Shown: positions 38,749 through 55,641 of the stretch, one piece after another | Layout of the letters: each line of letters opens with the position of its first letter | Numbering within the stretch: position 1 is the stretch's first letter | Assembly: GCF_029948125.1 (NCBI RefSeq) | Contig: NZ_JASAMB010000002.1 | Location: forward strand, 262,479 to 326,478 | Origin: Catellatospora sp. KI3 | Lineage (GTDB): Bacteria; Actinomycetota; Actinomycetes; Mycobacteriales; Micromonosporaceae | Reading direction: 5' to 3' | Length of the DNA stretch: 64,000 bases | Notes under the pieces: generated by a model | Database searches by the model: none | Told to the model about the DNA's origin: nothing | Seen by the model: the letters and a program-made list of their open reading frames with translations, nothing else | Program-made: the position numbers and the translations under genes

Positions 38749-39768
38749 TCAGATGCCGTGCCCCCGGCGGTGCAGCGCGGTCAGCACCGTCTCCACCTTC
38801 ACCGCACCCGCGATGGCGGCCAGCGCGATCGCGGCGCGCGGCTCGCGCCAGTTGTTGCGCACCGTCTCGCGGGTCCAGCGCCAGGCCTGCTTGCGGTCGC
38901 CCGCCGCCGCCGACCAGCACGCCAGCTGCCCGTAGACCCGGGCGGCCCCCGGCCGGCAGCCGGAGATCTCCGGGTGGCGCGCCATCATCCAGCGCAGCGA
39001 GGAGATCTTCGTCGTGTACTCGTACGCGTAGAAGCTGCTGCGTCCCCACAGCACCCGCACCAGCGGCTCGTCCACGTGCACGATCGGGTGCCGCCGGGCG
39101 GCCCGCAGCAGCAGGTCCCAGTCCTCGTTCTGGCTGCCCGGGGCGTCCTCGGCGACCTGGCCGATCACCCCGTCCTCCAGCAGCGCCTCGCGCAGCGCCA
39201 GGAAGCCCGACGAGTGCAGCATCGACATGCGCGAGCGGGACAGCTGCTCGACGGTGACCGAGTCGGTCCCGGCCAGGCGGGGGTGCACCTGCTGCTCGAA
39301 CTCGACCTCCACGGCGCACGTCGCGAACTCCGCCCCGGGCGTACGCACCAGCGCGTCGACCTGCCGCCGCAGCTTCGACGGGTGCCACACGTCGTCGTCG
39401 TCGCAGAACGCGACCAGCTCGGTGTCCAGCGCCATGATGCCGGTGTTGCGCGCCCCGGCCAGGCCGGGCTGGCGCCAGTTGGCCAGCACCATCACCGGGT
39501 GGTCGGCGTCGTCGGCCAGCCGCCAGTCGGGCTCGGCCTGGTCGAACACCACGATGACGCGCAGCCGGCCCGGGTAGTCCTGCGCGCGTACCGCGGCCAG
39601 GGTGCGGCGCAGCAGCTCGGGGCGGTCGCGGGTCGGGATGACCACGCCGACCGTGGGCCAGTCGCGCGGGATCGGGGTCTGCTGCGGCACCGGCGCCCAG
39701 CCCGGTGCGGCGCCCGGGGCGGCCGGCCTGGTGTCGCGGAACCGTCCGGCGTTGGCCTTCGTCTTCAT
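38749..39768 (-). CDS. Family-2 glycosyltransferase
   Basis: VGVVIPTRDRPELLRRTLAAVRAQ...FCDDDD (DxD) GT-A fold signatures. Confidence 0.75.
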   Translation of the reverse strand: MKTKANAGRFRDTRPAAPGAAPGWAPVPQQTPIPRDWPTVGVVIPTRDRPELLRRTLAAVRAQDYPGRLRVIVVFDQAEPDWRLADDADHPVMVLANWRQPGLAGARNTGIMALDTELVAFCDDDDVWHPSKLRRQVDALVRTPGAEFATCAVEVEFEQQVHPRLAGTDSVTVEQLSRSRMSMLHSSGFLALREALLEDGVIGQVAEDAPGSQNEDWDLLLRAARRHPIVHVDEPLVRVLWGRSSFYAYEYTTKISSLRWMMARHPEISGCRPGAARVYGQLACWSAAAGDRKQAWRWTRETVRNNWREPRAAIALAAIAGAVKVETVLTALHRRGHGI

Positions 39769-40763
39769 CGTCGCGCTCCTGTGCTGGTGTATTCGGAGTT
39801 GCCACGGCGCGCGCCCGGCAGCGGCGCGCTGCCCAGGGGGTAGCCGTACGCCTTGAGCAGCGGGGCGCAGACCGCGCCGACCAGGGCCCGCTGCCGGGGC
39901 AGCAGGCTGTCGCGCCAGGCGTCGTCGCGCCGCAGCAGCACCCGGCCGGTGGTGAACCGCATCGGGTTGCCCGCCGCGCTGTGCGCGCTGGTCAGCTCTA
40001 CCGATTCGTGGTCCAGGAAGCTCAGGTCCATCACCGACGGATCGAGCCCGGCGAACGCGGCCACCCGGCGCACGCTGCCGACGGGGTCGGCCAGGAAGTC
40101 CTCGTACCGCAGCCGCCGCACCGCGACCCCGCGCCGCCGCAGCAGCCCGAACGCGGCGTTGTGCGCGTTCCACAGCAGGGCGCTGCGCGCCGGGGCGTAG
40201 CGGGTCATGTCGTCGGTGCCGTCGGCCTCCGGCCGCGCCACCTTCTTGGTCCACGAGTACGCCACCCCGCGCGCGTCCCGCACCACGTGCAGCACCCGCA
40301 GGTCCACCTCGTCGCAGTGGCGCAGGCAGTGCGCCAGCGCGCTGTGCTTGGACGAGTCGATCACGATGTTGGCGCCGGAGACCCGGGCCGCGGCGGCGTA
40401 GATCTTCGCGTAGTAGCCCGCGTACTCGGCGACCAGCGTGGTGAACTCCCCGGCGAACCGGCTCGACCCGGCCAGCCGCGGGATGTGCCGGGTCCGCTCG
40501 ACCAGGTCGCGCAGCGCGAGGATGCGGTGCACGTCGACGCGGTGCCAGCCGCCGAAGGCGGAGATGCCCACGCGCTGCCAGAAGTCGCAGCCGGAGAAGC
40601 GCTGCCCGCAGCCGCAGCGCTCGTCGTCGCGCAGGTCGCGCTGCCACAGGTGGACGATCTCGCCCAGCGCGCAGACCCCGGGCAGTTCACCGAGCACCCG
40701 CTCGATCAGCGTCGTACCGCTGCGGCCGAGTCCGCCTAGGAAGAGCACCCTGGTCGTCGTCAT
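39765..40763 (-). CDS. Sulfotransferase family protein (PAPS-dependent)
   Basis: 5'-PSB P-loop-like motif FLGGLGRSGTTL near the N-terminus, and an RxxxS 3'-PB-like region. Start overlaps the downstream GT2 stop by 4 nt. Confidence 0.7.
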   Translation of the reverse strand: MTTTRVLFLGGLGRSGTTLIERVLGELPGVCALGEIVHLWQRDLRDDERCGCGQRFSGCDFWQRVGISAFGGWHRVDVHRILALRDLVERTRHIPRLAGSSRFAGEFTTLVAEYAGYYAKIYAAAARVSGANIVIDSSKHSALAHCLRHCDEVDLRVLHVVRDARGVAYSWTKKVARPEADGTDDMTRYAPARSALLWNAHNAAFGLLRRRGVAVRRLRYEDFLADPVGSVRRVAAFAGLDPSVMDLSFLDHESVELTSAHSAAGNPMRFTTGRVLLRRDDAWRDSLLPRQRALVGAVCAPLLKAYGYPLGSAPLPGARRGNSEYTSTGARR

Positions 40764-40851: not shown

Positions 40852-41661
40852 GTGGCTTTTACGGGGACTGTCTATGGCCGCCGCGTGCACCTCGCCGGGA
40901 CCTGGTTCGACGCCGTGACCGAGGAGGCCGTCGCCGACCGCGTACTGGCAGCACTCGAACGCGGCGAAGGCGGCCGCATCATCACGCCGAACGTCGACAT
41001 CATGCGCCTGGCCACCGGCCGCGGCCTGCGCGCCGCCGAGGTGCGGGGCTTCCTCGACGACGCCAGCATCATCGTCGCCGACGGCATGCCCCTGGTCTGG
41101 GCCAGCAGGATCGGCCGCAGCCCGCTACCCGAACGGGTGACCGGCTCCGGCCTCATCTGGAGCCTGTCGGCGGCCCTCGGCCGCGCCGGACGCTCCGTGT
41201 ACGTGCTCGGCGGCTCCCCGCCCCGCTCCGACGGCGGCATGGACGGCGCGGTGAAGGCCGCCTCGGTGCTCGCTTCCGCCTGCCCCGGGCTTCGGATCGC
41301 GGGGCACGTCGCGCCGCCGTTCGGATTCGACCTGGACCCGGACGGCTGCGCGCGGGTGTACACCGACGTCATCGAGGCCAAGCCGGACCTGGTGTTCGTG
41401 GGGCTCGGGTTCCCGAAGCAGGAGCGGGTGATCGCGGATCTGCGGGCGGAGCTGCCCTTCACCTGGTTCCTCGGGTGCGGGGCGGCGGTCGGGTTCGTGG
41501 CGGGGGAGCTGCACCGGGCGCCGGGGTGGATGCAGCGCAGCGGCCTGGAGTGGGCCCACCGGCTCGCCCAGGAGCCGGGCCGGCTGGCCGGCCGCTACCT
41601 GGTCCGCGACATGCCCTACGCCGTACGCCTCCTCGCCGGCGCCGCCCTGCGCCGCCGGTAA
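40852..41661 (+). CDS. WecB/TagA/CpsF-family glycosyltransferase
   Basis: ITPNVDIMRL...ADGMPLVWASR motifs typical of the N-acetylmannosaminyltransferase (GT26) family. Confidence 0.8.
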   Translation: MAFTGTVYGRRVHLAGTWFDAVTEEAVADRVLAALERGEGGRIITPNVDIMRLATGRGLRAAEVRGFLDDASIIVADGMPLVWASRIGRSPLPERVTGSGLIWSLSAALGRAGRSVYVLGGSPPRSDGGMDGAVKAASVLASACPGLRIAGHVAPPFGFDLDPDGCARVYTDVIEAKPDLVFVGLGFPKQERVIADLRAELPFTWFLGCGAAVGFVAGELHRAPGWMQRSGLEWAHRLAQEPGRLAGRYLVRDMPYAVRLLAGAALRRR

Positions 41662-41942
41662 CCGATCCGCCCGCCGCGCCGCAGGCGGGCCCCTCGGGGC
41701 GCGCTTCCAGTCCAAGATCGCTATTCGCGGCCGCTTCCAGCGGAAGATCACTGTCTGGTGTCACTGTGCGCGCTTCAAGCCGACGTTATGACCCGAAGCG
41801 CTGATCTCCTGCGGAAGATCGGTGGTTCCGGTCGCGGTTGGGGCCCTCGCTCGGCCGCCGCGCCGCGCCGCACGCCACCGAGCAGCTCCCTGCCCGCCCG
41901 TCAGCCCGCCCGCCCGCCCGCCCGCGGGGCGGTGGCGTGGCG

Positions 41943-42004
41943 GCAGTTTCGGGGAAAGTGCACGAAATACGGCCAAGATTCCCGCAGTTTCCCCGAAACT
42001 GCAC
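41943..42004. repeat. Dispersed palindromic repeat family A, copy 3 (right arm degraded)
   Basis: GCAGTTTCGGGGAAAGTGCACGAA-atacggccaagattccc-GCAGTTTCCCCGAAACTGCAC. Confidence 0.7.
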
Positions 42005-42111
42005 GGTGCACGACGGGGATGTGTCGATCGGAGATCCTTGTCGCGTGCCCCGAACGGGGGAATCGCCAGCGGTCAGGTGCCTTCGTCCTTGGCGCGTCTT
42101 ATCCTGCGGTG

Positions 42112-42345
42112 GTGAGCAACGTCGATGCCAGCTGGGCCGATGGCGGCCGCAGCGATGCAGGTGGCGGGCAGTGTGTGGAGGTCCTGTTCGGGGCTGACAC
42201 GGTTGCCGTGCGCGATTCCGGCAACCCCGACGGCCCGATGCTGGCCTTCTCCCGCGACTCCTGGCAGTCCTTCCTCGACGCCGTGAAATCGGGCGACCTC
42301 GACCTGATCGCACAACGCGGCGACCGCGTCTCCGCCGACGCCTGA
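42112..42345 (+). CDS. DUF397 domain protein (orphan)
   Basis: 77 aa. GGQCVEV...VAVRDSGNPDGPMLAFSRDSWQSFLDAVKSGDLD matches the Streptomyces-type DUF397 signature. No adjacent XRE/DUF5753 partner. Confidence 0.6.
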   Translation: MSNVDASWADGGRSDAGGGQCVEVLFGADTVAVRDSGNPDGPMLAFSRDSWQSFLDAVKSGDLDLIAQRGDRVSADA

Positions 42346-42531: not shown

Positions 42532-43476
42532 TCAACGGGACATGGACTGGCGGAGGGCGGTGAGGGGGAGGGGGTCGTGGCGGAGGGAGAACTGGCCGGT
42601 GGGTTGGCGGTCGTCGGGGTCGGACTCGAAGTACAGGGTGGCGCGGATCTGGGGGTTGGCGGTGAAGACTGCCGCTGCCTCGGTGAGCCAGGTGGCGCGT
42701 TGGGTGGGGGACCAGGCGCGGGCTACGCCGTACTCGCCGATCATGATGGGTCTCGGGTGGGCGGCGGCCCAGCGGAGGAAGGGTTCGAGGAGGTCGGCCA
42801 TGGGGGTCAGGGCGGTGCCGGCGTAGGCGTCGACGCAGGTCCAGTCGACCTGGTCGTCGCCGGGGTAGTAGGCGGGGGCGCGGCCGGAGGCGAAGCCCTC
42901 GACGGTCGGGCACCAGACCCAGGCGGCGTTGGTGACGCCCTCGGCGGCGAACAGCTCCCGGGTGCGGCGCCAGGCGGCGACGAACTCGTGCGGCGAGCCG
43001 ACCTCGACGACCAGGTTGGGGCGGTCCATCTCCCAGCGCAGCCGCAGCAGCACCGGGGCGTCGAGGTCGCGGACCTGGCGGGCCCGCTCGCGGATCGCCG
43101 CGTCGTGCTGCCCGGTCAGCACCTCGGCGCTGTCGGCGCCGGTCCAGCTCAGCATCAGGGTGGCCCCGGCGTCGCGGAACCGCCGGTCCGAGACGGTCCC
43201 GATCTCCTCGTGCATGCGCCGGTACGTGTTGACGATGTCCAGCCGTCGGCCGAGCTGCTGCTCGAAGTCCTGCACGGCCGCGAAGCGGCCCGCCTGGGTG
43301 AGGCTGTCGGGGCGTACCCAGGCGCCCACCAGCGCGCCGCCGCGCGGGACCGGCACGGGGCCGGTGGCGAGGCCGGTGTCCGTCGCGATGCGCGGCGGGA
43401 CCGGGGTGGTCGTGCCGCAGGTGGCGAGGGTCAGCGCGGCCGCGATCGCGGCGGCGGCGCGCAGCAGGCGGAGCAT
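42532..43476 (-). CDS. GH26-like glycoside hydrolase (clan GH-A) lipoprotein
   Basis: Lipobox LATCG. Region IMIGEYGV with a putative nucleophile Glu, plus conserved segments shared with the C-terminal domain of 51437-54031. Start overlaps the upstream stop (TGATG). Confidence 0.6.
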   Translation of the reverse strand: MLRLLRAAAAIAAALTLATCGTTTPVPPRIATDTGLATGPVPVPRGGALVGAWVRPDSLTQAGRFAAVQDFEQQLGRRLDIVNTYRRMHEEIGTVSDRRFRDAGATLMLSWTGADSAEVLTGQHDAAIRERARQVRDLDAPVLLRLRWEMDRPNLVVEVGSPHEFVAAWRRTRELFAAEGVTNAAWVWCPTVEGFASGRAPAYYPGDDQVDWTCVDAYAGTALTPMADLLEPFLRWAAAHPRPIMIGEYGVARAWSPTQRATWLTEAAAVFTANPQIRATLYFESDPDDRQPTGQFSLRHDPLPLTALRQSMSR

Positions 43477-44228
43477 CAGTCGTGCGCCCGGGTGCGACGG
43501 GCGACGTACAGCACGTTCACCGCCCAGCGGCCGCCCCAGCCGGTGCGGGCGCACACGTCGTCGAGGACGCGGGCCAGGCCGCGCAGCCACGGGCGGCCGT
43601 ACCAGCCCTGGGTGAACAGGGCGAAGCCGCGCCGCTCGACGACGGTGAAGCCGTGCCGGTCCAGCAGTTCGGCGACCTCGGTGTGGTCGAGTTCGGCGAA
43701 CCAGGGCGAGCCGGCGTGGCGGTGGTGGCGCAGGTGCCGCAGCGAGTGCCGGTTGCCGTGGTTCTCCACCACGAGCAGGCCCGCGTCGTAGTTGGGCAGC
43801 ACCTTGGCCGAGAACGCGATGGCCCGCTCGCGCACCTCGGGCTCGACGTTGAGCAGCAGCCGGAAGATGGTGACCAGCGCGGGGGCCTCGGTGGGCTGCG
43901 GGTCGGGCACCTCGCCGGCGGACTCGACCAGGTGCAGCTCCGCGTACGAGCCGACCTCCTCGGCCTTGGCCAGCATCGCCGCCGAGGTGTCGTACCCGTG
44001 GGCGCCGCGGACCAGGCCGTGCAGGATGCGGATGGCGCGGCCGGTGCCGCAGGCGAAGTCGTGCTGCACCGGGCGCCGGTAGGGGAACGCGCGTTTGGCG
44101 AGTCTGCGCAGGTAGGCGCGTTGGCGTCGATTGATCGCCGAGGCGTAGCTGTCCGGGGCGTATACGACGTGCTCGTACTTCTCGACCGTCGCCTCGTCCT
44201 GGAAGATCTCGGTGTAGTCGGCGCGCAT
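43476..44228 (-). CDS. Class I SAM-dependent methyltransferase
   Basis: Motif I DFACGTGR, in Rossmann-fold methyltransferase arrangement. Confidence 0.7.
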   Translation of the reverse strand: MRADYTEIFQDEATVEKYEHVVYAPDSYASAINRRQRAYLRRLAKRAFPYRRPVQHDFACGTGRAIRILHGLVRGAHGYDTSAAMLAKAEEVGSYAELHLVESAGEVPDPQPTEAPALVTIFRLLLNVEPEVRERAIAFSAKVLPNYDAGLLVVENHGNRHSLRHLRHHRHAGSPWFAELDHTEVAELLDRHGFTVVERRGFALFTQGWYGRPWLRGLARVLDDVCARTGWGGRWAVNVLYVARRTRAHD

Positions 44229-44247: not shown

Positions 44248-45831
44248 CTAGCGGGTTGGCTGGCCCCGGCGCTTGCCGGGGGTGGTCGTGGGCCGGGCGG
44301 CCTTGAGCAGGGCGGCGAGCCCCAGCCGGTCCCGGAAGGTGCGCAGGCCGCCGACGTACACACCGGTGGCCAGGGCCAGCGTCGCGCCGGTGCCCAGCGC
44401 GGTGGCGGGCAGCGCCAGCCGGGCCAGCCAGGGCAGCAGGCCGAAGCTGGCCAGGGCCAGCCCCATCGCGGTGCGGGTGGCGCCACCGAACGGGTGCAGG
44501 CCCAGGGCGCCCGCGAGCTGCGCCAGCGGCACCAGGTTGTTGACCGCCACCGCGGCGGCCAGGCCGTAGGCGGCGCCGAGCACGCCGAGCCGGGGGATGG
44601 TGTACAGGTCGATGGCGACCATGACGGCCAGCGCCAGCAGTACGTTGGCGAGGTTCCAGGTGGTCCGCCCGGCCATCGACAGCACCATGTCGACCATGCC
44701 GCAGCCGGTGCCGATCAGCATCGCCACCGCGAGCACCCGCACCGCCGGAGCGGCCGAGACGTACGAGCCGCCGAAGACGCTCAGGTAGACGTCGGCGTAG
44801 TCCCACACCAGCAGGTGCAGCGGCCAGCAGATGAGCACCAGCCACGCCGTCGCGGTCTGGTAGAGCCGCTTGGCCCCGGCCCGGTCGCCGACGGACAGGG
44901 TCTCGGCCAGCCTCGGCTGCACCGCCTGCGCGATCGAGCCGTTGGCCAGCTGCCCGAGCACGATGAACCGCCCGGCCACCGCGTACGCCGCGGCGGGTGC
45001 CAGCCCGGCCAGCCCGGCGACCATCAGCACGTCCACCCGCTGCAGCGCGGTCTGCGCCGAGTTGGCCAGCGCGCGGGGCGCCGTGTAGCGCCAGAACGCC
45101 GAGGTTACGCTGCGCCCCTCGATCCGGGCGGCCAGCCGCTCGCGCCGGTCCAGCAGCGGTTCGCGCTGCCAGCGCCGCCACACCAGGTACGCCGCGAGCA
45201 GCACCACCGGCGCGTACGGCAGCACCCAGGCCAGCGCCCAGGTGGAGGTGGACAGCACCGCCCCGCCGGACACCGCGAGCACGGCCAGCGCGCCGACGCC
45301 GCACAGCTGCATCGCCGGGCGCAGGATCTTGTCGAGCAGCACCGTCGGCCGCATCTCGCGGTAGCCGCGGGTGGCCGCCAGCAGCGCGTCGGTCAGCGCC
45401 GCCAGCGGCATGAACACGGCCAGCGCCGAGAGCGGGGCGGCGTACTCGGGGACGAAGTGCGCGGCGGTCAGCCATACCCCCGCCGCCAGGATCGTGCCCA
45501 GCACGGCGACCGGCACCAGCCCGGCGCGCAGGCACGCGCCGATCAGCTCGGGCCGCCCCTGGGCCCGCAGCCGGGCCGGCCAGTAGACCAGCGCGGTCGA
45601 GGTGCCGAGCCGGGCCACCCCGCCGACCAGCACGAACGCCGACGTGGCGGCGAAGAACGAGCCGGCCGAGTCGGGGCCGAGGCCCCGCGCGACCAGCCAG
45701 GTCACGCCGACCCCGGCGACCCCGGCCAGCGCCGCCCCGGCCAGGTTGGCCAGGCCGCCCCGGGCGACGCCGGAGACCCCGGCGGGCTCCGGCGCCGTGG
45801 TGGGCGCGGGAGCCAGCAGCTGGCCGGTCAC
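44248..45831 (-). CDS. Polysaccharide biosynthesis protein / Wzx-type flippase (MOP superfamily)
   Basis: About 528 aa with at least 12 TM helices. GTG start overlapping the upstream sulfotransferase stop (GTGA). Confidence 0.7.
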   Translation of the reverse strand: MTGQLLAPAPTTAPEPAGVSGVARGGLANLAGAALAGVAGVGVTWLVARGLGPDSAGSFFAATSAFVLVGGVARLGTSTALVYWPARLRAQGRPELIGACLRAGLVPVAVLGTILAAGVWLTAAHFVPEYAAPLSALAVFMPLAALTDALLAATRGYREMRPTVLLDKILRPAMQLCGVGALAVLAVSGGAVLSTSTWALAWVLPYAPVVLLAAYLVWRRWQREPLLDRRERLAARIEGRSVTSAFWRYTAPRALANSAQTALQRVDVLMVAGLAGLAPAAAYAVAGRFIVLGQLANGSIAQAVQPRLAETLSVGDRAGAKRLYQTATAWLVLICWPLHLLVWDYADVYLSVFGGSYVSAAPAVRVLAVAMLIGTGCGMVDMVLSMAGRTTWNLANVLLALAVMVAIDLYTIPRLGVLGAAYGLAAAVAVNNLVPLAQLAGALGLHPFGGATRTAMGLALASFGLLPWLARLALPATALGTGATLALATGVYVGGLRTFRDRLGLAALLKAARPTTTPGKRRGQPTR

Positions 45832-46700
45832 TCGCGCCAGCTCGGGGTGTGGCCCAGCCACTGCGCCAGCTCGGCGTCGTGCGGGGCGTAGTGGGCGCGC
45901 AGTTCGGTACGCAGCCGGGCGGGCATCGGCGCCGTGCGCGGCCGGGCGTTGTGCTGCCCGAAGTCGGGGTAGCCCAGCAGCGGCAGCCCGAGGAAGTCGA
46001 GCACCTGGTCGTACGCGGCGGCCGGGTCGGTGAAGAACCGCTCGCTCTCCAGCACCAGGATCCGCTCGCGCGGCACCTCCCGCACGAGCCGCCGCAGGTA
46101 GACGGCGTACTCGCCGCGGGCGCGGTAGCCGTGGTGCTGGTGCGAGAACGAGTACGCGTGCTGGTCGGCGAGCATCCGCTCGCGCTGCCCGCGCAGCCGC
46201 GCGGGCTCCAGGTCCAGCGCGGCGGCGAAGTCGGCCGTGGTCTCGAAGCCGCGGGCCAGCTCGTGCGCGTGCTGGGAGTAGGCGCGCTCGACCGGGTCGC
46301 GGACCAGCACGATCAGCTTCACACCGGGCAGGTCGCGGGCGATGCGCCCGGCCGCGTGCGGGTGGTACAGGTAGTACGGGCTGGACTCGAAGGTCTGCAC
46401 CGGCACGCCCAGCTCGCGCTCCACCCGGGTGGCGGTGCGCCGCAGCGGGAAGTGCCCCTGGTACCAGGCCAGCCCCCGGTGGTAGCTGGTGTCGAAGTAG
46501 TGCACGCCCTTGTGCAGCACCGCCTTGAGCACGGCCGGGTGGGCGGCCATGGCGCGGTACAGCGAGGTGGTGCCGCAGCGCTGGCCGCCGCAGATCAGGA
46601 ACGAGGGCAGCATCCGCGCGCCCGAGGTCAGCCACCCGACCGACCGGGAGCCGAGGTGGACGACCTTCTTCACCGACTCCGGCACGTGCGTCGACTTCAC
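45828..46700 (-). CDS. Sulfotransferase family protein (second copy)
   Basis: P-loop-like PSB motif ICGGQRCGTTSL, and LVRDPVERAYSQ (3'-PB region). Confidence 0.7.
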   Translation of the reverse strand: MKSTHVPESVKKVVHLGSRSVGWLTSGARMLPSFLICGGQRCGTTSLYRAMAAHPAVLKAVLHKGVHYFDTSYHRGLAWYQGHFPLRRTATRVERELGVPVQTFESSPYYLYHPHAAGRIARDLPGVKLIVLVRDPVERAYSQHAHELARGFETTADFAAALDLEPARLRGQRERMLADQHAYSFSHQHHGYRARGEYAVYLRRLVREVPRERILVLESERFFTDPAAAYDQVLDFLGLPLLGYPDFGQHNARPRTAPMPARLRTELRAHYAPHDAELAQWLGHTPSWRE

Positions 46701-48114: not shown

Positions 48115-49494
48115 TCAGGCGGCCGAGCGGGTCTGCTCGTTGCGCCACAGCAGCACGTACCCGAGGAAGGTGAACGCCAGCGGCGTGACCAGGGAGTTGT
48201 ACCAGAGCGCGGCCACGAACGAGCCGGTGATCGCGGCCGTGGCCGCCAACCCGATCGGGGACCGGTCGCGCCGGAACCGCCACAGCGCGAACCCGAAGAA
48301 CCCGAAGTAGGTGACCGTGCCCGCCAGCCCGTGCGCGAACAGCAGCTGCCACAGCTGGCCGTTGCCGCCCACGGTGAAGTTGCCGCAGCGCTCGCACGCC
48401 GCTGACTCGCCGACGGTGATCGAGTTGCGGCCGCCCACGGTGTTGCGGGTCGAGCCGAAGCCGAGCACCGGCGACTCGGCGAACCCGGCCAGCGCCCGCT
48501 CGGTGAGGAACATGCGGACGCCGTTGGACTTGCCGTTGTCCATCCGCCGCTCGACCACGCCGCCCAGCGGGGTGGCGGCCAGCGCCACCACCAGCCCGGC
48601 GCCGACTACGCCCAGCGCCACGAGCGCGCGGACGCGTCCGGCCAGCGCCTGGCGGACCGCGACGAACACCGCCGCGACGCCCAGACCGATCCACAGGCCG
48701 CGGTTGAGCGAGTGGACCACCGGGATGACCGACAGCACCAGCGTGGCCACCGCCAGCACCCGGGTGCGCACCGAGGTCCGGTACGCGAACACGGCCACCA
48801 CGAACCACACCACCAGCAGGCAGAAGTTGTTGCCCCAGGTGTTGGTGTAGCCCCACGGCGCGGCCGGGCGGGGCAGCGGGTCGCCGACCAGGTCCATGAT
48901 CTGCGCCGCGTACGGGTGGACCAGCGACTTCACGAAGCTCTTGCCGCGTACGCCGTCGGGCAGCAGCAGCTCGAACGGCGAGGTGAACTCGAACGACCCC
49001 GCGAACGTGCCCAGCAGCCCGCCCGCGACGGTCACCGCGAACAGCCAGCCCAGCAGGTTCACCAGCCGCCGCTGGGTCAGCACGGCGGTGGACAGGTTCC
49101 CGGCGTAGACCAGCAGGACGGTCAGGGCGGCGTACTGGATCAGGCGGAACGCCACCGCGGTGATCCGGTCGCCGAACCCGGCGACGACGGTCCCCTCCGG
49201 ATCGACGTCCAGCACCGCCAGCCCGGCCACGACCGTCGCGCAGAACGACAGCCACAGCCAGAAGCCGGGCGGCAGCCGCACCGGTCGGCCCGAGGTGTGG
49301 CGGCGCCACAGCTGCACCGCCATCGGTACGGCGGCCATCGGGAAGATCAGCACGCCCAGGCCCAGCGCCCACCACAGCGGATACAGCGCCAGCAGCAGCG
49401 TGAGCGGCCAGCCGGGCCCCAGCAGCGACCGGAACCCGGTGCGCGCGGGCGGGGGACCGGCGGGCAGTGCGGTGACCGGGGCCAGGGCGGTCAC
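48115..49494 (-). CDS. O-antigen ligase / polymerase-like (Wzy_C family) integral membrane protein
   Basis: About 460 aa, 10-12 TM helices with a large periplasmic loop. GTG start overlaps the upstream wzc stop (GTGA). Confidence 0.6.
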   Translation of the reverse strand: MTALAPVTALPAGPPPARTGFRSLLGPGWPLTLLLALYPLWWALGLGVLIFPMAAVPMAVQLWRRHTSGRPVRLPPGFWLWLSFCATVVAGLAVLDVDPEGTVVAGFGDRITAVAFRLIQYAALTVLLVYAGNLSTAVLTQRRLVNLLGWLFAVTVAGGLLGTFAGSFEFTSPFELLLPDGVRGKSFVKSLVHPYAAQIMDLVGDPLPRPAAPWGYTNTWGNNFCLLVVWFVVAVFAYRTSVRTRVLAVATLVLSVIPVVHSLNRGLWIGLGVAAVFVAVRQALAGRVRALVALGVVGAGLVVALAATPLGGVVERRMDNGKSNGVRMFLTERALAGFAESPVLGFGSTRNTVGGRNSITVGESAACERCGNFTVGGNGQLWQLLFAHGLAGTVTYFGFFGFALWRFRRDRSPIGLAATAAITGSFVAALWYNSLVTPLAFTFLGYVLLWRNEQTRSAA

Positions 49495-51131
49495 CGGGGG
49501 TGCGCCTCGTCCAGCTCGGCCAGCTCGGAGGCGTCGACCGGGGCGAGCATGATGGTCTGGTCCTCGCCGCGCGGCTTGTGGCCGTTGGTGTGCGGGTCCG
49601 GCTCGGGCGCGGCGGTCTCGACCAGCGCGGGCTCGGGCGTGGCGGCGGGCTTGCGGCGGGCGCGGTGCGCCAGCTTCGGCATGACCACGCCGCCCAGCAG
49701 CACCGTGCCGACCCGGCGCAGCTGCTCGGCCGCGTCGGACAGCTGCGGGCGGCGGGTGCGCCGCAGCTCGACCGCGACGATCGCCGCGTCGGCGAGGCTG
49801 GCCAGGCTCTGCGCGTCGGCGCTGGCCGCGGTCGACGGGGCCTCGATGACCAGGTAGTCGGCGTGGGCCCGCAGCGTCGCCACGATGTCGCGCAGGGCGT
49901 GCGACTGCAGCATGCCCGCGGCGGTGGCGGTGCCGCCGGTGGTGATGACGTGCAGCGAGGGGGTACGCGCCGCGCGCTGCGTCGCCTCGGCCAGGTTGAC
50001 CCGGCCCGCGAGCAGGTCGGACAGGCCCGGCGTCGGGGCGACCCCGAGCAGCTGCGCCAGCGGCGCGCTCTCGGCCAGCGTGTCGGGCACCTGCGCTCCG
50101 ATCAGTACCACCTCGGCCCCCGTCCGCGACAGCGCCGCGGCCAGGTTCGCCGCCACCAGCGTCGCGGCCGGGCCGCGGCTGGCCCCGGTCACCACCACGA
50201 CCTGCTCGCCCGGCTTGAGCGCGGCGACCACCTCGTTGCGCAGCCGGTTGAAGGCCCGCCCGCCGGGGCTGAACGGGGTGAACACCTCGGTGCAGCTCTT
50301 GCCCTTGCCCGACACCGTGCCCAGCACGTCGATCCCGGCCCGGACCAGGTCGCGGCCGCCGTGCACGCGCCGGTCCAGCCGCTGGCGCAGCGCGGCCAGG
50401 CCCAGCCCGGCGAGCAGCCCCAGCAGGGCGCCCGCGGCGTAGTTGACGGCCGGGTTCGGCTTGACCGGGCGGCTGGGCACCCGCGCCTCCTGGATGATCA
50501 CGCCCGCGTTGACCGTCTCGGTGGCCAGCGCGTTGACCCTGTTGTTGAGCTGGTTGATCTGGTTCACCGTGGTGTCGCGCTGGCTGTCCAGCGAGGCGTA
50601 CGCGCTGCTGTTGGAGTGCAGCCCGCTCAGCTTGCCGTTGATGTCGGTGAGGTCGTCGCTCAGCTCCTTGAGCTTGGCCCGCAGCGCGTCGGCCTGCCGG
50701 GTCAGCTCGGCCTTGGCGTTGCCCTCCCGGTTGGCCAGGTAGGACTGCGCGAACGCGTGGGCACCCGCCTGCGCCTCCAGCGGGTCGCCCGCGGTGTACT
50801 CGACCTGCAGCACCGACGTGTTCGGCGGCACCTCGACCGAGACCGACGCGCCGAGCACGTCGACGTCCTGGCGGTTCAGCAGCTTGGCTGCCCCGGCCAC
50901 GACCGGCGTCGAGCGCAGCAGCTGCGCCTCGGTGTCCAGGTTGATCTCGTCGCGGGTACGGCCGCCGGAGACGTTGGCGTCCAGCCCGGCGGGCCGGACC
51001 AGCACCGAGGCGGCCGACACGTACTCGCGCGGCAGCGACTGGTTGTAGGCGGCGCCCGCGGCCACCCCCAGCGCGGTGAGCACCACCGCGATCCACCAGT
51101 GGCGGCGCAGCAGGCCGAGGTAGTCGCTCAT
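49491..51131 (-). CDS. Polysaccharide co-polymerase / tyrosine autokinase (Wzc-like)
   Basis: N-terminal Wzz-type TM plus coiled-coil periplasmic domain. C-terminal CpsD/CapB-type P-loop ATPase (VVVVTGASRGPAATLVAANLAAAL; ITTGG). Confidence 0.7.
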   Translation of the reverse strand: MSDYLGLLRRHWWIAVVLTALGVAAGAAYNQSLPREYVSAASVLVRPAGLDANVSGGRTRDEINLDTEAQLLRSTPVVAGAAKLLNRQDVDVLGASVSVEVPPNTSVLQVEYTAGDPLEAQAGAHAFAQSYLANREGNAKAELTRQADALRAKLKELSDDLTDINGKLSGLHSNSSAYASLDSQRDTTVNQINQLNNRVNALATETVNAGVIIQEARVPSRPVKPNPAVNYAAGALLGLLAGLGLAALRQRLDRRVHGGRDLVRAGIDVLGTVSGKGKSCTEVFTPFSPGGRAFNRLRNEVVAALKPGEQVVVVTGASRGPAATLVAANLAAALSRTGAEVVLIGAQVPDTLAESAPLAQLLGVAPTPGLSDLLAGRVNLAEATQRAARTPSLHVITTGGTATAAGMLQSHALRDIVATLRAHADYLVIEAPSTAASADAQSLASLADAAIVAVELRRTRRPQLSDAAEQLRRVGTVLLGGVVMPKLAHRARRKPAATPEPALVETAAPEPDPHTNGHKPRGEDQTIMLAPVDASELAELDEAHPR

Positions 51132-51173
51132 GTCGTACGACGAGGGGGGTGACCCGGCGTAAGTCGCTTCCAC

Positions 51174-51436
51174 GGCGTGGGCCCTTCTGGCGGCGGTATG
51201 ACGTCCGGTGGGGTCAACGGTCCGGGTGCAGCGACGTAACTGCGCACAAGGTCCGATAAACTGACAAACATGCGTTATCGCAGCTAGAACGCTATATAGG
51301 GATGAAATATCTCAGCGCTGCTTTGACGCCAAAAAGCTCCCAAACCTTCCTAAACGGATATGATGCCCTCGAGGATACGCACAACTGGACATAAATCCAG
51401 CTCGCGTACCGGGGGCTTCGGGGGAAGGGGCGAGCG
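51174..51436. promoter_or_regulatory. AT-rich divergent promoter region between wzc (-) and the secreted GH26-like gene (+)
   Basis: Local drop in GC (e.g. ATAAACTGACAAACATGCGTTATCGCAGCTAGAACGCTATATAGGGATGAAATATCTCAG) in an otherwise >70% GC genome. Intergenic between two divergent transcription units. Confidence 0.4.
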
Positions 51437-54031
51437 ATGAGCAAGACCCGCGTCGGCATCGCGATCACCGTCAGCATGTCGGTTCTGGCTTCGGCGGTCC
51501 TGCTCGGACTGCTGGGCGGGGCGCTGACCCCGCCGCCTGCCCGCGTCTCGGTCACCGAGGACGCGTACACCCTGAGCACCGCGCCCACCGCCGGTGCCGG
51601 CCGCCAGGTCTACCTCACCGCGGGCGGCTACAAGGGCGGAGCGGCGGTCAGCTACCTGAAGTTCCACGTGCAGCTGCCCGAGGGGCGGCGCCCCGACCGG
51701 ATCTGGCTGTGGCTCGGCCGCCACAGCGGCACGCTGCCGCGCGTGGTCGAGCTGACCCAGGTGCCCGACACCCGGTGGCGCCAGAGCACGCTCACCGCCG
51801 CCACCGCGCCGCGCCTGGGCAACGTCGTCTCCTCGGTCACGCCCGGCCGCTACGACCGCGCCGTCGCCTTCGACATCACCCGGGTCGTCAACGGCTCCGG
51901 CTGGTACGCCTTCGCGGTGACCGCGCCGACCGGCAACCAGCTGGCCTACTTCGTCGCGGCGGAGGCAGGTGCCACCAGCACCGGCCCGCCCACGATCACC
52001 TTCGAGTGGAACGCCCTGCCCAGCACGGGCAGCACGCTGCCCGGGGTACCGTCGCCCACGGCGACCGCTTCCGCCACGGCCGCCGCGAGCGCGCAGCCCG
52101 GCGGCACCGCCACGACGACACCGGCCGCCGATCCGATCGGGACGCCCACCCTGACGCCGGACCCGGCCGACCCGTCGCCGGCCGACCCGTCGCCGAGCGA
52201 CGATCAGACCAGCAGCAGCGAACCGGTCCCGGGCAGCCCGGAGCCGAGCGAGTCGCCCGAGGGGCCCGCGCAGGAGCCGGAGCCCAGCCCGGCCGTCTCG
52301 ACCGAGCCGAGCGCCGGCACCTGGCCCGCGCCGTCCGATTCGGCCGAGCCCAGCCCGGAGCCGAGCCCCCTTCCCGACCCGTCCACCTCGGTCGGCCCGG
52401 TCGACCTGCCCGAGCCGTCGACCGCGCCCAGCGTCACCCCGTGGCCGGACTCGTCCTACTCGCCCAGCGAGCAGCCCTGGCCGTCCGCCTCGCCCAGCGC
52501 CGACCCGTGGCCGTCCGCCTCGCCCAGCGTGGACCCGTGGCCGTCCGCGTCGCCGGTGGTCGACCCGTGGCCGACGGACGAGCCGACGACCGGCGAGGAG
52601 CCCTCCTCGGGCCCCAGCCCGACCGACCTGCCCTCGCCGGCCGACCCCGGCACGGACCCGTCCGCCGAGCCCCTGCCCAGCGTCGACCCCGTGCCGAGTG
52701 TCGACCCCGTGCCGAGCATCGAACCTCAGCCCAGCACCGAGCCCGCGCCGAGCACCGAGCCTGAGCCGAGCATCGAACCTGAGCCGAGCATCGAGCCTGC
52801 GCCTAGCGTCGAACCTCAGCCGAGCGTCGAACCTCAGCCGAGCGCCGAGCCCAGTCCGGATCCCACCCTCGACCCGCAGCCCAGCGCCGAGCCGAGCACC
52901 GACCCCGGCACTGAGCCGGGTCCCGAGCCCAGCGTCGAGCCCGAGCCGAGCACCGCGCCCGAGCCCAGCGCGGAACCGAGCGCCGAGCCGCAGCCGAGTG
53001 CTGAGCCGAGCGCCGGACCCAGCACCGGGCCGAGCACCGGGCCCAGCCCGTCGACCGGGCCGGAACTGCCGGCGGACTGCGTGATCGGGGCGAACCTGGT
53101 GCCCACCTGCGGCGCGCTGTGGGGGGTCGCCGCCGGCGCCCACACCCGGCAGAACCGCATCGAGGCCCTGTACGAGTTCGAGCGCCGCACCGACCGCCGC
53201 CAGGTCATCTACCACGCGTACCACCGGGGCACCGAGCTGTTCCCGACCGCGGAGGAGCTGTCCATCACCAAGGACCCGCAGCAGCGGCGGATCCTGTTCC
53301 TCAACTGGAAGCCGCAGCAGGCGAACTGGGCCCAGATCGCCGCGGGCGACCGGGGCACCGAGGCCTACCTCGACCGGCTTGCCGCCCACATCAAGAGCTC
53401 GCTGACCGAGCCGTTCTTCTTCACGATGAACCACGAGCCCGAGAACGACGTGGTCAACCGGCCCGGGTCGGGCATGACCGCCCTGGACTACGCCGCCGCG
53501 TTCCGGCAGGTGGTGACCGGTCTGCGCCAGCGCGGCGTGTCCAACCTGGTCTCGGTGATGTGCTACATGGCCTTCGTGCCGTGGAACGTGAAGGGCTGGT
53601 TCGAGCAGCTGTACCCCGGCGACGACGTGGTCGACTGGGTGGCCTGGGACACCTACGCCTACAGCGAGCCCGGCTACGGCTACGGCGACTTCGCCGAGAT
53701 GATGAACCGGGTCTCCGGCAGCCGCAAGGACTGGCCCGGCTTCTACAACTGGGCCGCGACGTCCTTCCCGGACAAGCCGCTGATGCTGGGCGAGTGGGGG
53801 GTGTGGCACTCCGCCCGCAACCCGCTGCACCAGTCGGAGTTCTTCGACTCGGCCCGGCTGCAGCTGGAGTCGTTCCCGCGGCTGAAGGCGCTGGTCTACT
53901 TCGAGTCGCCCAGCGCCGAGGGGCGCAGCTCGATGATCGACGACACCCCGGCCGGGCTGGCCTCGTTCCAGCGGTTCAGCCAGCACCCGGCCTTCGACAT
54001 CGACACCCTCCCGCTGGGCCGCCGGCGCTAG
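51437..54031 (+). CDS. Secreted multidomain protein: signal peptide + N-terminal beta-sandwich (putative carbohydrate-binding) domain + ~300-aa Pro/Glu/Ser/Thr-rich repeat linker + C-terminal GH26-like hydrolase domain
   Basis: 864 aa. Signal and TM MSKTRVGIAITVSMSVLASAVLLGLL. Linker repeats EPxPSxEP, encoded by DNA tandem repeats at about 52200-53060. C-terminal HEPEND, LMLGEWGVWH and VYFESP segments parallel the 42532-43476 protein. Confidence 0.65.
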   Translation: MSKTRVGIAITVSMSVLASAVLLGLLGGALTPPPARVSVTEDAYTLSTAPTAGAGRQVYLTAGGYKGGAAVSYLKFHVQLPEGRRPDRIWLWLGRHSGTLPRVVELTQVPDTRWRQSTLTAATAPRLGNVVSSVTPGRYDRAVAFDITRVVNGSGWYAFAVTAPTGNQLAYFVAAEAGATSTGPPTITFEWNALPSTGSTLPGVPSPTATASATAAASAQPGGTATTTPAADPIGTPTLTPDPADPSPADPSPSDDQTSSSEPVPGSPEPSESPEGPAQEPEPSPAVSTEPSAGTWPAPSDSAEPSPEPSPLPDPSTSVGPVDLPEPSTAPSVTPWPDSSYSPSEQPWPSASPSADPWPSASPSVDPWPSASPVVDPWPTDEPTTGEEPSSGPSPTDLPSPADPGTDPSAEPLPSVDPVPSVDPVPSIEPQPSTEPAPSTEPEPSIEPEPSIEPAPSVEPQPSVEPQPSAEPSPDPTLDPQPSAEPSTDPGTEPGPEPSVEPEPSTAPEPSAEPSAEPQPSAEPSAGPSTGPSTGPSPSTGPELPADCVIGANLVPTCGALWGVAAGAHTRQNRIEALYEFERRTDRRQVIYHAYHRGTELFPTAEELSITKDPQQRRILFLNWKPQQANWAQIAAGDRGTEAYLDRLAAHIKSSLTEPFFFTMNHEPENDVVNRPGSGMTALDYAAAFRQVVTGLRQRGVSNLVSVMCYMAFVPWNVKGWFEQLYPGDDVVDWVAWDTYAYSEPGYGYGDFAEMMNRVSGSRKDWPGFYNWAATSFPDKPLMLGEWGVWHSARNPLHQSEFFDSARLQLESFPRLKALVYFESPSAEGRSSMIDDTPAGLASFQRFSQHPAFDIDTLPLGRRR

Positions 54032-55641
54032 CGGGGATTGATCCAGCCTTCGTCGGCGAGGTACGCGAGTACCTCGCCGACGGCGTCTTCGATGGTGCCG
54101 GCCGAGGTGTCGAGGACCAGTTCGGCGTCGGTCGGCACCTCGTACGGGTCGTCGATGCCGGTCATGCCGGTGAGCTGCCCGGCGCGGGCGCGGGCGTAGA
54201 GGCCCTTGCGGTCGCGCTGCTCGCACACCTCCAGCGGGGTGGCGACGTAGACCAGCACGAAGTCGGCCCCGGCGGCCACCGCCATCCTCCGCACCGTGGC
54301 GCGGGCGCTGGCGTACGGCGCGATCGGGCAGGCCACGGCCAGGCCGCCGTGCCGGGCCACCTCGGCGGCGACCCAGCCGATGCGGCGGATGTTCAGGTCG
54401 CGGTCGGCCTTGCTGAATCCCAGCCCGGCCGACAGTTCGCGGCGCACCACGTCGCCGTCGAGCACGGTGAGGCTGCGCTCGCCCGTCTCCAGCAGCGCGT
54501 CGGCGACCCCGCGCGCCACCGTGGACTTGCCGGAGCCGCTGAAGCCGGTGAAGAACAGGACCAGGCCCCGCTGGCGGCGCGGCGGCCGGGAGCGGGTCAG
54601 CTCGCGGGCGACCGCGGGCGGGGTGTGCCACTCCGGCAGCGGCAGGCCGTCGTCGAGCAGGCCGGCGATCTCCTCGTCGGTGAGCGCGATCCGCTCGAAC
54701 CGCTCGGGCACCTCGTCGCGGTCGCGCCACTGGCCGTCGCGGCTGTCGTACACCAGCTCGCGCGGGATGAGCACGCGCGGGCCGGCGCCGGTCATCGCAC
54801 CGGGCGTGCCGAGCAGGTGGGTCACCCCGTACGCCGCGGCGACCTTGGCGCGGACCAGGGCGTCGGTGATCTCGTTGCCCCGGTCGACCAGGGGCACGGC
54901 CACGATGATCGGGTCGTGCATCCGGTCCCGGGCGGCCAGCACGCAGCGCACCAGCGCCTCGGCGGTCAGCCCGTCCGGGCCGGGCGCGCCGACCGGGACC
55001 AGCACCAGCAGCTGCGCGTTGAGCTGCCGGGCGGCGTGGTTGAGCTGGGCCAGCTGCGGGCGGTGCAGCGGGCGGTCGGCGAAGAAGCCGAGCACGCGCG
55101 GGGCGGTGATCAGCCCGTGCACCCGCTCGGTGGGCACGCGCAGGCGCGCGAACGGGGCACGGCCGCCGTCACCGGTGCGGGTGACCGGCCCGGCCACCCC
55201 GACCCAGCCCTCGCGGGCGGGCCACACCTCCGTCACGTCCAGGCGCGCCACCGGGGCGCCCTCGGGGTCGGTCAGCAGCAGCGGGGGCCGGTCGGCGACG
55301 TCGATGCCGTCGAGCATGCCCGCGGGCACCTCCAGCTTGACCGGCAGCGGCCAGGGCCGCCCGTCGCCCAGGCGCGCCGTAGCCGCCACCGAACGCAGGT
55401 CGTCGCGGCCGAGGAACCCGCCCAGCGGCGCGTACGCCCCGCTGAGCAGCAGCTCCAGATCGGACAGCTCCGTCGGGTTCGGGGTCCACGACGGTGCGCC
55501 CCGCAACGCCTCGTCGCTCACCACTCGCTCGCTCCGCTCGCTCACGATCGCTCCTGCCTCCCCGACTTCCGGCCGGTCCACTCCTTCGCGCCACTCGCGT
55601 CGTCGCGAGACTAGCGCCCCTCCGTGACCGACAGGTGACAA
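54028..55641 (-). CDS. cysC: Adenylyl-sulfate (APS) kinase with N-terminal ATP-sulfurylase-like (probably catalytically degenerate) domain
   Basis: C-terminal APS kinase P-loop FFTGFSGSGKSTVA. N-terminal segment LSDLELLLSGAYAPLGGFL matches the ATP-sulfurylase N-domain. The canonical QTRN/HRAH motif is replaced (FADRPLHRPQL). True start may be internal. Confidence 0.7.
   Translation of the reverse strand: MSPVGHGGALVSRRREWREGVDRPEVGEAGAIVSERSERVVSDEALRGAPSWTPNPTELSDLELLLSGAYAPLGGFLGRDDLRSVAATARLGDGRPWPLPVKLEVPAGMLDGIDVADRPPLLLTDPEGAPVARLDVTEVWPAREGWVGVAGPVTRTGDGGRAPFARLRVPTERVHGLITAPRVLGFFADRPLHRPQLAQLNHAARQLNAQLLVLVPVGAPGPDGLTAEALVRCVLAARDRMHDPIIVAVPLVDRGNEITDALVRAKVAAAYGVTHLLGTPGAMTGAGPRVLIPRELVYDSRDGQWRDRDEVPERFERIALTDEEIAGLLDDGLPLPEWHTPPAVARELTRSRPPRRQRGLVLFFTGFSGSGKSTVARGVADALLETGERSLTVLDGDVVRRELSAGLGFSKADRDLNIRRIGWVAAEVARHGGLAVACPIAPYASARATVRRMAVAAGADFVLVYVATPLEVCEQRDRKGLYARARAGQLTGMTGIDDPYEVPTDAELVLDTSAGTIEDAVGEVLAYLADEGWINPR

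Follow-up and report, generated by a model that had tools for sequence, protein, structure and literature searches.

What product is made by a compact group of glycosyltransferase, sulfotransferase and polymer-export genes in Catellatospora sp. KI3, and does this group belong to one strain or to its whole family? The genes lie at 38749-55641 of a 64-kb stretch of contig NZ_JASAMB010000002.1, the whole of which was analyzed here and is called the window. A first-pass annotation had read them as an accessory cluster for a sulfated surface polysaccharide of the Wzx/Wzy-dependent type, with a Wzc tyrosine kinase as co-polymerase and a kinase converting adenosine 5'-phosphosulfate (APS) to 3'-phosphoadenosine 5'-phosphosulfate (PAPS). 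The Wzx/Wzy type of the cluster, its two sulfotransferases (ST1 and ST2) and its APS kinase stood up to our analysis; its accessory nature and the tyrosine kinase did not. We regard it as likely that Catellatospora carries here its ortholog of the Actinoplanes missouriensis wps-1 cluster together with the neighbouring APS-kinase gene, i.e. a vertically inherited, family-wide locus for Wzx/Wzy-dependent synthesis of a decorated and very probably sulfated glycan. The present work establishes which genes are present, their orthology and conservation and the intactness of their catalytic motifs, and published knock-outs establish that sporangium development in A. missouriensis requires them (PMC13390465).

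The GC content of the window is high (0.65-0.76), which is why the raw lists of open reading frames (ORFs) were crowded with shadow frames. The gene map was based on a third-position GC frame plot, in which one frame was accepted per stretch, and on inspection of start codons. Domains were called by Pfam and NCBIfam scans against curated cut-offs, by sequence matches to the PDB and by ortholog alignments. The frame plot and the scans bore out the gene coordinates of the first-pass annotation, and its glycosyltransferase pair, methyltransferase, kinase-fold enzyme and two GH26-like hydrolases were all supported (Table 1). Its count of fourteen genes was revised: the conserved cluster consists of 12 genes, with one non-conserved DUF397 ORF, within 38749-55641.

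Orthology to wps-1 and conservation in the Micromonosporaceae

The wps-1 cluster of A. missouriensis 431 encodes WpsA-K (AMIS_7280-7380; Tezuka and Ohnishi, Appl Environ Microbiol 2026, PMC13390465), and the domain list given in that paper for WpsA-K and AMIS_7390 corresponds one by one to the genes of the cluster. We reached the A. missouriensis locus (AP012319.1:776294-797562) by a homolog search seeded with the kinase-like gene of Actinoplanes italicus. In the Pfam content of its genes, and in their order and orientation, the locus agreed with the window, with the same DeoR/GalT flanks and the same Sat/APS-kinase and GH26 neighbours, and all 12 window proteins matched A. missouriensis proteins at 51-73% identity over near-full length.

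According to the published knock-outs, all wps-1 genes except wpsD (DUF4262) are needed for normal sporangia and spore release; AMIS_7390, which belongs to the sulfate adenylyltransferase/APS kinase family, was "unexpectedly" needed too, and AMIS_7260 and AMIS_7270, which occupy the GalT and DeoR positions, were not (PMC13390465). The cluster is induced early in sporangium formation, growth of the mutants is normal, and as the product the authors prefer a matrix polysaccharide. PAPS, conservation in other genera, a pseudokinase and a primer are not mentioned in the text of the paper. The opinion that such clusters are essentially uncharacterised in actinomycetes has therefore been overtaken, since the orthologous wps-1 was dissected genetically in June 2026, if not by chemical proof of sulfate (PMC13390465). 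A literature search on other sulfotransferase work in the Micromonosporaceae returned nothing relevant, and a review of marine exopolysaccharides held no usable statement on natural bacterial sulfation.

When one genome per species was scanned with an alignment of ST2 as the query, relatives of ST2 were found in at least 570 species genomes, and the best 80 of these all belonged to the Micromonosporaceae (22 named genera). We compared 17 window proteins with these 80 loci by tblastn. The results showed that the cluster was kept in every one of the 80 loci, with nearly all 12 genes present at 50-75% identity in the same order and orientation, often flanked by GalT/DeoR on one side and by PEP carboxylase on the other; typical Micromonospora and Salinispora genomes lie outside this direct check. 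Splitting of the cluster into unrelated contexts in relatives, which the first-pass annotation had named as grounds for doubt, was thus not seen in the best 80 of at least 570 loci.

The label "accessory" implied a strain- or lineage-specific island gained horizontally and equipped with a true Wzc tyrosine-kinase regulator. The unusual mix of genes would suit such an origin, as would a variable slot that holds the non-conserved DUF397 ORF with its weaker codon-position GC signal. However, both the GC content of the cluster (0.72-0.76) and its third-position GC equal those of the flanks, which include the housekeeping genes galT, ppc and mfd; content, order and flanks are kept in 80/80 inspected loci and partly in another actinomycete order; and the kinase motifs are missing throughout the orthologs, as described below. 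Synteny conserved in the 80 inspected loci and flank-like composition together indicate that the cluster is not an accessory island, and we rejected horizontal acquisition on these two counts, leaving it hardly any credence.

Outside the family, Spirillospora sp. NBC_00431 (L084, CP107927.1:6310270-6331553) was found to carry a related, rearranged and reduced cluster directly beside mfd. The proteins in common were the Sat-like/APS kinase (50% identity), the co-polymerase (36%), Wzy (42%), the kinase (46%), the GH26-like protein (42%), an ST2-like protein (56%), Wzx (43%) and the GT2 glycosyltransferase (47%). The locus contained neither ST1 nor the GT26 glycosyltransferase, and had in addition a TauE-family permease, a PKD-repeat protein, a PAP2 phosphatase, Alg14 and an Alg13-like/GT2 fusion. 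Since Spirillospora belongs to another actinomycete order, the reduced core of eight genes (APS kinase, co-polymerase, Wzy, APH-fold kinase, GH26, ST2-type sulfotransferase, Wzx and GT2) appears to be older than the Micromonosporaceae.

As far as we understand, several further genera that carry the cluster form no sporangia. Catellatospora bears its spores directly on the substrate hyphae and has no spore vesicles (PMC6113628). The occurrence of the cluster in such organisms suggests that the role of the polymer extends beyond a sporangium matrix, and most likely it is a more general one in the spore or hyphal envelope. A wider proposition, namely that the locus stands beside ppc/mfd in essentially all Micromonosporaceae and in reduced form in other orders, and that a sulfated, phosphorylated and methylated glycan is a general envelope component, is a serious possibility that we stop short of calling probable.

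Proposed assembly, possible anchoring and processing of the polymer

Both the GT2 glycosyltransferase and the WecB/TagA-family enzyme of the first-pass annotation gave Pfam matches (Table 1). The latter, a GT26 enzyme with a strong match, also passed the NCBIfam superfamily model TIGR00696 (100.5 bits against a cut-off of 69), and no NCBIfam equivalog model passed (TarA, 78 against 350; WecG, 60 against 323). Because only the superfamily model passed, we left the donor and the acceptor of this enzyme undefined. The predicted flippase matched MatE above cut-off and contained 11 hydrophobic segments, in support of the Wzx protein claimed at this position, and its Spirillospora relative matched Polysacc_synt. 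The Wzy-type protein scored just short of the Wzy_C cut-off and had nine hydrophobic segments, where about 10 transmembrane segments are typical of such polymerases; its A. missouriensis ortholog is on record with PF04932.

The co-polymerase gave weak matches to Wzz and GNVR, below cut-off. It showed homology (E = 7e-11 to 1e-8) to BceF, Wzc, VpsO and CapAB, and the topology of a polysaccharide co-polymerase (PCP) was present: as in these bacterial tyrosine kinases (BY-kinases) of the PCP-2 type, two transmembrane segments are combined with an extracytoplasmic coiled coil and with a P-loop domain on the cytoplasmic side. Unlike them, the protein lacks the Walker A lysine, the DxD motif and the tyrosine cluster. 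The Walker A position reads GASRGPAAT (no lysine), Walker A' reads VLIGAQVPD (no DxD) and the Walker B position reads VIEAPS, and there is no tyrosine in the last 40 residues, as is also the case in 74/77 orthologs. The degenerate kinase motifs are shared by 74 to 77 of the 77 orthologs, and all NCBIfam tyrosine-autokinase models stayed below cut-off on the protein (TIGR01007, 68.5 against 108 bits). The motifs thus contradict its earlier naming as a Wzc tyrosine kinase; by the same motifs, the protein is best treated as a conserved pseudokinase co-polymerase, predicted to work without regulation by tyrosine phosphorylation.

No primer of the WecA or WbaP type (Bac_transf, Glycos_transf_4) was found in any scanned gene of the 64-kb window, which extends to the whole window what had been noticed for the cluster itself, and no primer gene was called in the A. 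missouriensis or Spirillospora loci. The search for primer and LytR-CpsA-Psr (LCP) genes covered every confidently coding gene. Two overlapping ORFs at 17875-18951 had no Pfam match, and the intervals 3034-4537 and 62447-63143, which hold no long ORF with a coding-type third-position GC signal except 4018-4302, were left out. It follows that the primer must be encoded elsewhere.

Two hydrolases accompany the assembly genes. The GH26-like lipoprotein had the GH26 module of Clostridium thermocellum CelH, presumably the lichenase CtLic26A, as its best PDB match (E = 1.5e-16), and both catalytic glutamates were aligned. The motifs WEMDRPN and GE[YF]G were kept in 75 orthologs, and the N-terminal LTLATC resembles a lipobox. 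The second protein (51437-54031, 864 aa) consists of a signal or anchor sequence, a CBM96 domain (E = 5e-12), an approximately 400-aa linker rich in proline, serine and glutamate, and a C-terminal domain that matched no Pfam family and gave an insignificant PDB sequence match. We call this domain GH26-like because it is paralogous to the lipoprotein: its 309 residues are 28% identical to that protein (E = 2e-16), with HEPEN and GEWG kept. The 864-aa protein is 52% identical to a 430-aa A. missouriensis protein with a weak GH26 match.

The main alternative, a variant in which sulfation is retained, is that the product is a cell-wall-anchored secondary glycopolymer, or a lipid-linked glycan resembling the enterobacterial common antigen (ECA), with a linkage unit containing N-acetylglucosamine (GlcNAc) and an LCP ligase encoded elsewhere. 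This would agree with the WecG/TagA/CpsF family membership of the sole transferase that is not of the GT2 type, with the lack of a primer gene in the cluster, with the Alg13/Alg14-like transferases of the Spirillospora version, and with the core-like, family-wide character of the locus, as would be expected of an envelope component. On the other hand, no LCP gene was present among the scanned genes of the 64-kb window, and the presence of two dedicated hydrolases, one of which carries a carbohydrate-binding module, points to an extracellular polymer that undergoes trimming or remodelling. The induction of the A. missouriensis genes during sporangium formation, the normal growth of the mutants and the authors' preference for a matrix polysaccharide (PMC13390465) also speak against it. 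We therefore consider a wall- or lipid-linked product rather unlikely.

Proposed sulfate supply and decoration of the glycan

The gene at the far end of the cluster encodes the APS kinase of the first-pass annotation, and this assignment held, as the kinase model was passed; a degenerate N-terminal domain resembling ATP sulfurylase, which had gone unremarked, is encoded in the same gene. The kinase domain matched Pfam APS_kinase (E = 1.3e-54) and NCBIfam apsK (TIGR00455, 183.2 bits against 138.7), and its motifs are kept: GFSGSGKST (GxSGSGKST), LDGDVVRRELS (LDGD) and DRDLNIRRIG (NxRRI). Two other models stayed below cut-off: the sulfate-adenylyltransferase model sopT (TIGR00339) gave 57 bits where 323 are required, and the bifunctional model reached 399 bits where 669 are required. 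The QxRNPxHxxH loop of sulfurylases is degenerate, its position reading ADRPLHRPQ in 64/66 orthologs and ADRPMHRPQ in one more, and the GRD position reads LGTPG. On the strength of the cut-offs and motifs we rejected a bifunctional sulfurylase/APS kinase; the sulfurylase-like domain is predicted to be inactive, next to an active-looking APS-kinase domain. The best PDB match over both domains was 3cr8, a two-domain APS kinase from Thiobacillus denitrificans (E = 2.3e-86), in which we take the sulfurylase-like domain to be without ATP sulfurylase activity. The RNP-loop motif is non-canonical in 3cr8 as well (ARQPMHRAQ), but more degenerate in the Catellatospora protein, whose gene is moreover dedicated to a polysaccharide cluster. 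The probable start codon is the GTG at 55545, since alignments with orthologs set in at residues 36-40 of the longest ORF. Synteny between this gene and the cluster was retained both in the family and in Spirillospora. Given this family-wide linkage, the phenotype of the AMIS_7390 knock-out would most simply be explained by loss of PAPS for the two sulfotransferases.

Both sulfotransferase ORFs, predicted earlier to be PAPS-type enzymes with 5'-phosphosulfate-binding (5'-PSB) motifs, passed the relevant hidden Markov model (HMM) cut-offs (Table 1), and a failure to match, which would have spoken against that assignment, did not occur. In ST1, which is 68% identical to the A. missouriensis gene product, the 5'-PSB motif reads GRSGTT and the 3'-phosphate-binding (3'-PB) motif VRDARGVAYS; GRSGTT and VRDxRGVAxS are kept in 66 orthologs. 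Its best solved relative was the sulfotransferase domain of the CurM polyketide synthase, a weak match (E = 3e-4). ST2, which was 100% identical to a protein of Catellatospora sp. KI3, also matched Sulfotransfer_3 (49.2 bits against 27), and its PDB match was heparan sulfate 3-O-sulfotransferase 3A1 (E = 1.4e-19). Alignment of ST2 with heparan sulfate 3-O-sulfotransferases (3-OSTs) and the N-sulfotransferase (E = 1e-19 to 1e-13) delineated the motifs QRCGTT(S) (5'-PSB), FESSPYY and VRDPVERAYS (3'-PB), which were invariant in 14 homologs spanning genera. The glutamate of FESSPYY lies opposite the EKTPSY segment of the 3-OSTs, which we take to be the site of their catalytic base. The PAPS-binding motifs of ST1 and ST2 were therefore invariant or nearly so across orthologs.

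Motif I of the methyltransferase (DFACGTGR) was invariant in 61 orthologs. The kinase (46732-47988) shows the features of the APH/choline-kinase group, namely the bilobal fold, the HxDxxxxN catalytic loop and the D-x-E/D metal site, and its functional motifs are intact and conserved. At E <= 1e-30 the kinase family comprised 1020 representatives at 50% identity, and it extends to Spirillospora (Thermomonosporaceae) and to a metagenome-assembled genome of the Acidothermales. Neither the sulfotransferases nor the kinase or the methyltransferase contained hydrophobic segments, which supports decoration in the cytoplasm.

In metagenomic sequences the APH-fold kinase was found fused to a sulfotransferase of ST2-like type (663-705 aa; 8 cluster members, approximately 15 contigs; P0479/P0346). 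The C-terminal half of the 705-aa fusion was 52% identical to ST2 (E = 4e-93), and the order of the fused domains is that of the adjacent kinase and ST2 genes in the window (45828-47988). The fusions suggest that the two proteins act together, and we predict from them that the APH-fold kinase and ST2 work as a pair. Two further architectures were seen among the kinase-containing proteins: a tandem duplication of the kinase domain (P0357), and a 903-aa protein (P0451) in which a Mrp/MinD-type ATPase, as named in the source, lies ahead of the kinase domain.

Several points weigh against a sulfated Wzx/Wzy polymer as the product of the locus. In the published work, the phenotype of the wpsB (ST1) knock-out is mild, the mutant being nearly normal; sulfate on the polymer is chemically undemonstrated in any actinomycete, and the authors call sulfation awaiting verification; and their tree groups WpsC with a glucosyltransferase, so that an acceptor other than GlcNAc is possible (PMC13390465). 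In our own analysis, the Wzx, Wzy and co-polymerase assignments combine weak HMM scores with topology, the prediction of an inactive sulfurylase-like domain comes from motifs, and the inspected loci are the best 80 of at least 570.

The mild wpsB phenotype and the lack of chemical demonstration for wps-1 (PMC13390465), together with the weak similarity of ST1 to solved sulfotransferases, the best of which is a polyketide-synthase domain, would also be in accord with an unsulfated glycan. The sulfotransferase-like proteins would then be inactive or use a lipid, a peptide or a small molecule, and the APS kinase would belong to general sulfur metabolism. However, the ST2 gene overlaps that of Wzx by 4 bp and the ST1 gene overlaps that of the GT2 enzyme, the PAPS-binding motifs are invariant across genera, the closest solved relatives of ST2 are carbohydrate (heparan sulfate) sulfotransferases, and the APS kinase is cluster-linked even in Spirillospora. 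In addition, the knock-outs of wpsH (ST2) and AMIS_7390 have the same phenotype as those of the glycosyltransferase, Wzx and Wzy genes (PMC13390465). We therefore regard an unsulfated product as improbable and retain the sulfated glycan as the preferred reading.

The sulfated glycan could be produced as follows. The two-domain APS kinase would convert APS, supplied by a sulfurylase encoded elsewhere, to PAPS. A phosphoglycosyltransferase outside the cluster would prime undecaprenyl phosphate; a WecA-type enzyme is plausible because the well-known GT26 enzymes TagA/TarA and WecG, which serve in making the wall teichoic acid linkage unit and ECA, extend undecaprenyl-diphosphate-GlcNAc. The GT26 and GT2 enzymes would complete a short repeat of two or three sugars, which would be decorated in the cytoplasm with sulfate by the signal-less ST1 and ST2, with phosphate by the APH-fold kinase acting together with ST2, and with a methyl group by the S-adenosylmethionine (SAM)-dependent methyltransferase. 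Wzx would then flip the unit, Wzy would polymerise it, and the pseudokinase co-polymerase would set assembly or chain length. Trimming, release or remodelling of the polymer outside the cell may fall to two enzymes, the GH26-like lipoprotein anchored in the membrane and the secreted one with CBM96 and GH26-like domains.

Gene map, neighbouring sequence and known systems

Table 1. Features of the cluster, with positions in the window and the main sequence evidence for each.
Feature	Position	Strand	Evidence or remark
GT2 glycosyltransferase (WpsA ortholog)	38749..39768	-	Pfam Glycos_transf_2 E = 5.6e-19; 73% identity to A. missouriensis gene
ST1, Sulfotransfer_3-type sulfotransferase (WpsB ortholog)	39765..40763	-	Sulfotransfer_3 50.1 bits, cut-off 27
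GT26 WecG/TagA/CpsF-family glycosyltransferase (WpsC ortholog)	40852..41661	+	Pfam Glyco_tran_WecG E = 2.3e-48
DUF397 ORF in variable slot	41758..42345	+	C-terminal DUF397 E = 5e-16; weak third-position GC signal
GH26-like glycoside hydrolase, predicted lipoprotein (WpsE ortholog)	42532..43476	-	Pfam GH26 21.9 bits, cut-off 20.2
SAM-dependent methyltransferase (WpsF ortholog)	43476..44228	-	Weak Methyltransf_25/23/11 matches
Wzx-type MOP-family flippase (WpsG ortholog)	44248..45831	-	Pfam MatE 36.1 bits, cut-off 24.9
ST2, heparan-sulfate-sulfotransferase-like (WpsH ortholog)	45828..46700	-	Sulfotransfer_1 54.1 bits, cut-off 22
APH/choline-kinase-fold small-molecule kinase (WpsI ortholog)	46732..47988	-	
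Wzy-type polymerase (WpsJ ortholog)	48115..49494	-	Wzy_C 30.3 bits, E = 4e-7, cut-off 31.7
PCP/Wzz-type polysaccharide co-polymerase with degenerate, apparently pseudokinase P-loop domain (WpsK ortholog)	49491..51131	-	
Divergent intergenic region with conserved motif	51132..51436		Least GC-rich stretch of the cluster
Secreted or anchored CBM96 + linker + GH26-like protein (ortholog of gene beside AMIS_7390)	51437..54031	+	
Two-domain APS kinase: PUA_2 + degenerate ATP-sulfurylase-like + APS kinase (AMIS_7390 ortholog)	54028..55641	-	

The genes overlap by 4 bp or 1 bp, and all the overlaps listed in the first-pass annotation were found in the sequence: ATGA (ST1/GT2), TGATG (methyltransferase/GH26-like lipoprotein) and GTGA (both ST2/Wzx and co-polymerase/Wzy). 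The GT26 gene is divergent from ST1. The stop codons of the convergent CBM96/GH26-like and APS-kinase genes overlap by 4 bp (54028-54031), an overlap that leaves no space for a terminator between them.

The co-polymerase gene is the first of a 7-gene operon. Upstream of it, on the minus strand, we found the motif AGTTACGT-N15-17-CGTTGACC (3' half CGTT[GT]ACC), whose 8-mer lies at 51234-51241 and has one copy in the 64-kb window. The 8-mer occurs once per locus in 28/76 related loci, always 54-166 nt upstream of the co-polymerase gene, and a relaxed pattern was present in 35/76; A. missouriensis has the 3' half only. We regard the motif as a candidate for a promoter or for the site of a regulator.

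Between the convergent GT26 and GH26-like genes lies a weakly coding gap (41662-42531), and the corresponding slot varies in length from approximately 0.2 to 4.4 kb across genera. In A. italicus and A. missouriensis it is occupied by DUF4262, with a glyoxalase-like gene as well in A. italicus. The DUF397 ORF found there in Catellatospora was considered as a cluster member and rejected, as its coding signal is weak and it occurs in only 3/80 related loci.

The rest of the window is housekeeping in character (opp transporters, pcrA, sucCD, purN/purH, folD, mdh, icd, ppc and mfd). Downstream of pcrA are two adjacent paralogous M23 peptidase genes (9051-9818 and 10110-10898, minus strand; E = 2e-32 and 3e-33). 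Between a CD225-family gene and purN lies approximately 1 kb (17875-18951) with long ORFs on both strands, neither of which matched a Pfam family or showed a clear coding frame. Coding statistics are good for a 440-aa protein at 34697-36019 (minus strand), which matched the anticodon-binding tail of cysteinyl-tRNA synthetase over its last approximately 45 residues (Pfam CysS_C, 5e-8; PDB 3tqo/1li5, E approximately 3e-3). This was its sole detectable similarity, with no match to the catalytic domain of that synthetase.

Sulfated polysaccharides are well known in animals and algae. Through the A. missouriensis work an actinomycete example became plausible, although it was treated there as belonging to the sporangium matrix of a single species. 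As a family-wide trait, the polymer is likely to be a general component of the envelope or spore, and hundreds of culturable strains could be used for its isolation. If the wider proposition above is true, Gram-positive bacteria would have here their first sulfated polysaccharide, made with a PAPS supply of its own, a kinase and a sulfotransferase acting as one unit, and a pseudokinase co-polymerase. The cluster offers a chance to settle the matter of bacterial polysaccharide sulfation in an easily grown Gram-positive. There is practical interest, too, in enzymes that sulfate defined bacterial glycans, as a means of making heparin-like materials.

Among known systems, the ECA pathway (WecA, WecG, WecF, WzxE, WzyE, WzzE) and the synthesis of the wall teichoic acid linkage unit (TagO/TagA) share with the present cluster a GT26 enzyme, which in those pathways extends a lipid-diphosphate-linked sugar from a shared or separately encoded primer. 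In the ECA type, as proposed here, a short repeat unit is then processed by Wzx, Wzy and Wzz. To our knowledge, the ECA and teichoic acid pathways have no extra enzymes for sulfate, phosphate or methyl decoration.

Among bacterial clusters for sulfated exopolysaccharides, chemistry and genetics are available together only for the xss (synechan) cluster of the cyanobacterium Synechocystis sp. PCC 6803, for which sulfate content was measured (Maeda et al., eLife 2021, PMC8205485). It resembles the present cluster in combining Wzx, Wzy and a PCP with two sulfotransferases of different subfamilies. It differs in being plasmid-borne, in having eight glycosyltransferases including its own primer XssP, in lacking an APS kinase, a kinase-fold enzyme, a methyltransferase and GH26, and in belonging to a Gram-negative host that needs an outer-membrane polysaccharide export (OPX) protein (PMC8205485), and there is no orthology between the two clusters.

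The closest system is wps-1 itself, with gene-for-gene orthology, matching orientations and both flanks in common. The differences are that Catellatospora makes no sporangia; that the variable slot holds the DUF397 ORF instead of DUF4262; that the CBM96/GH26-like gene is placed between those of the co-polymerase and the APS kinase, whereas in Actinoplanes it is found beyond the APS kinase; and that this second hydrolase has 864 aa with CBM96 and a long linker, as against 430 aa in A. missouriensis. In the wps-1 paper, AMIS_7390 was not tied to PAPS supply. Beyond that work, the present analysis adds the occurrence of the cluster in genera without sporangia, its reduced version beside mfd in Spirillospora, the kinase-sulfotransferase fusions and the conserved motif upstream of the operon.

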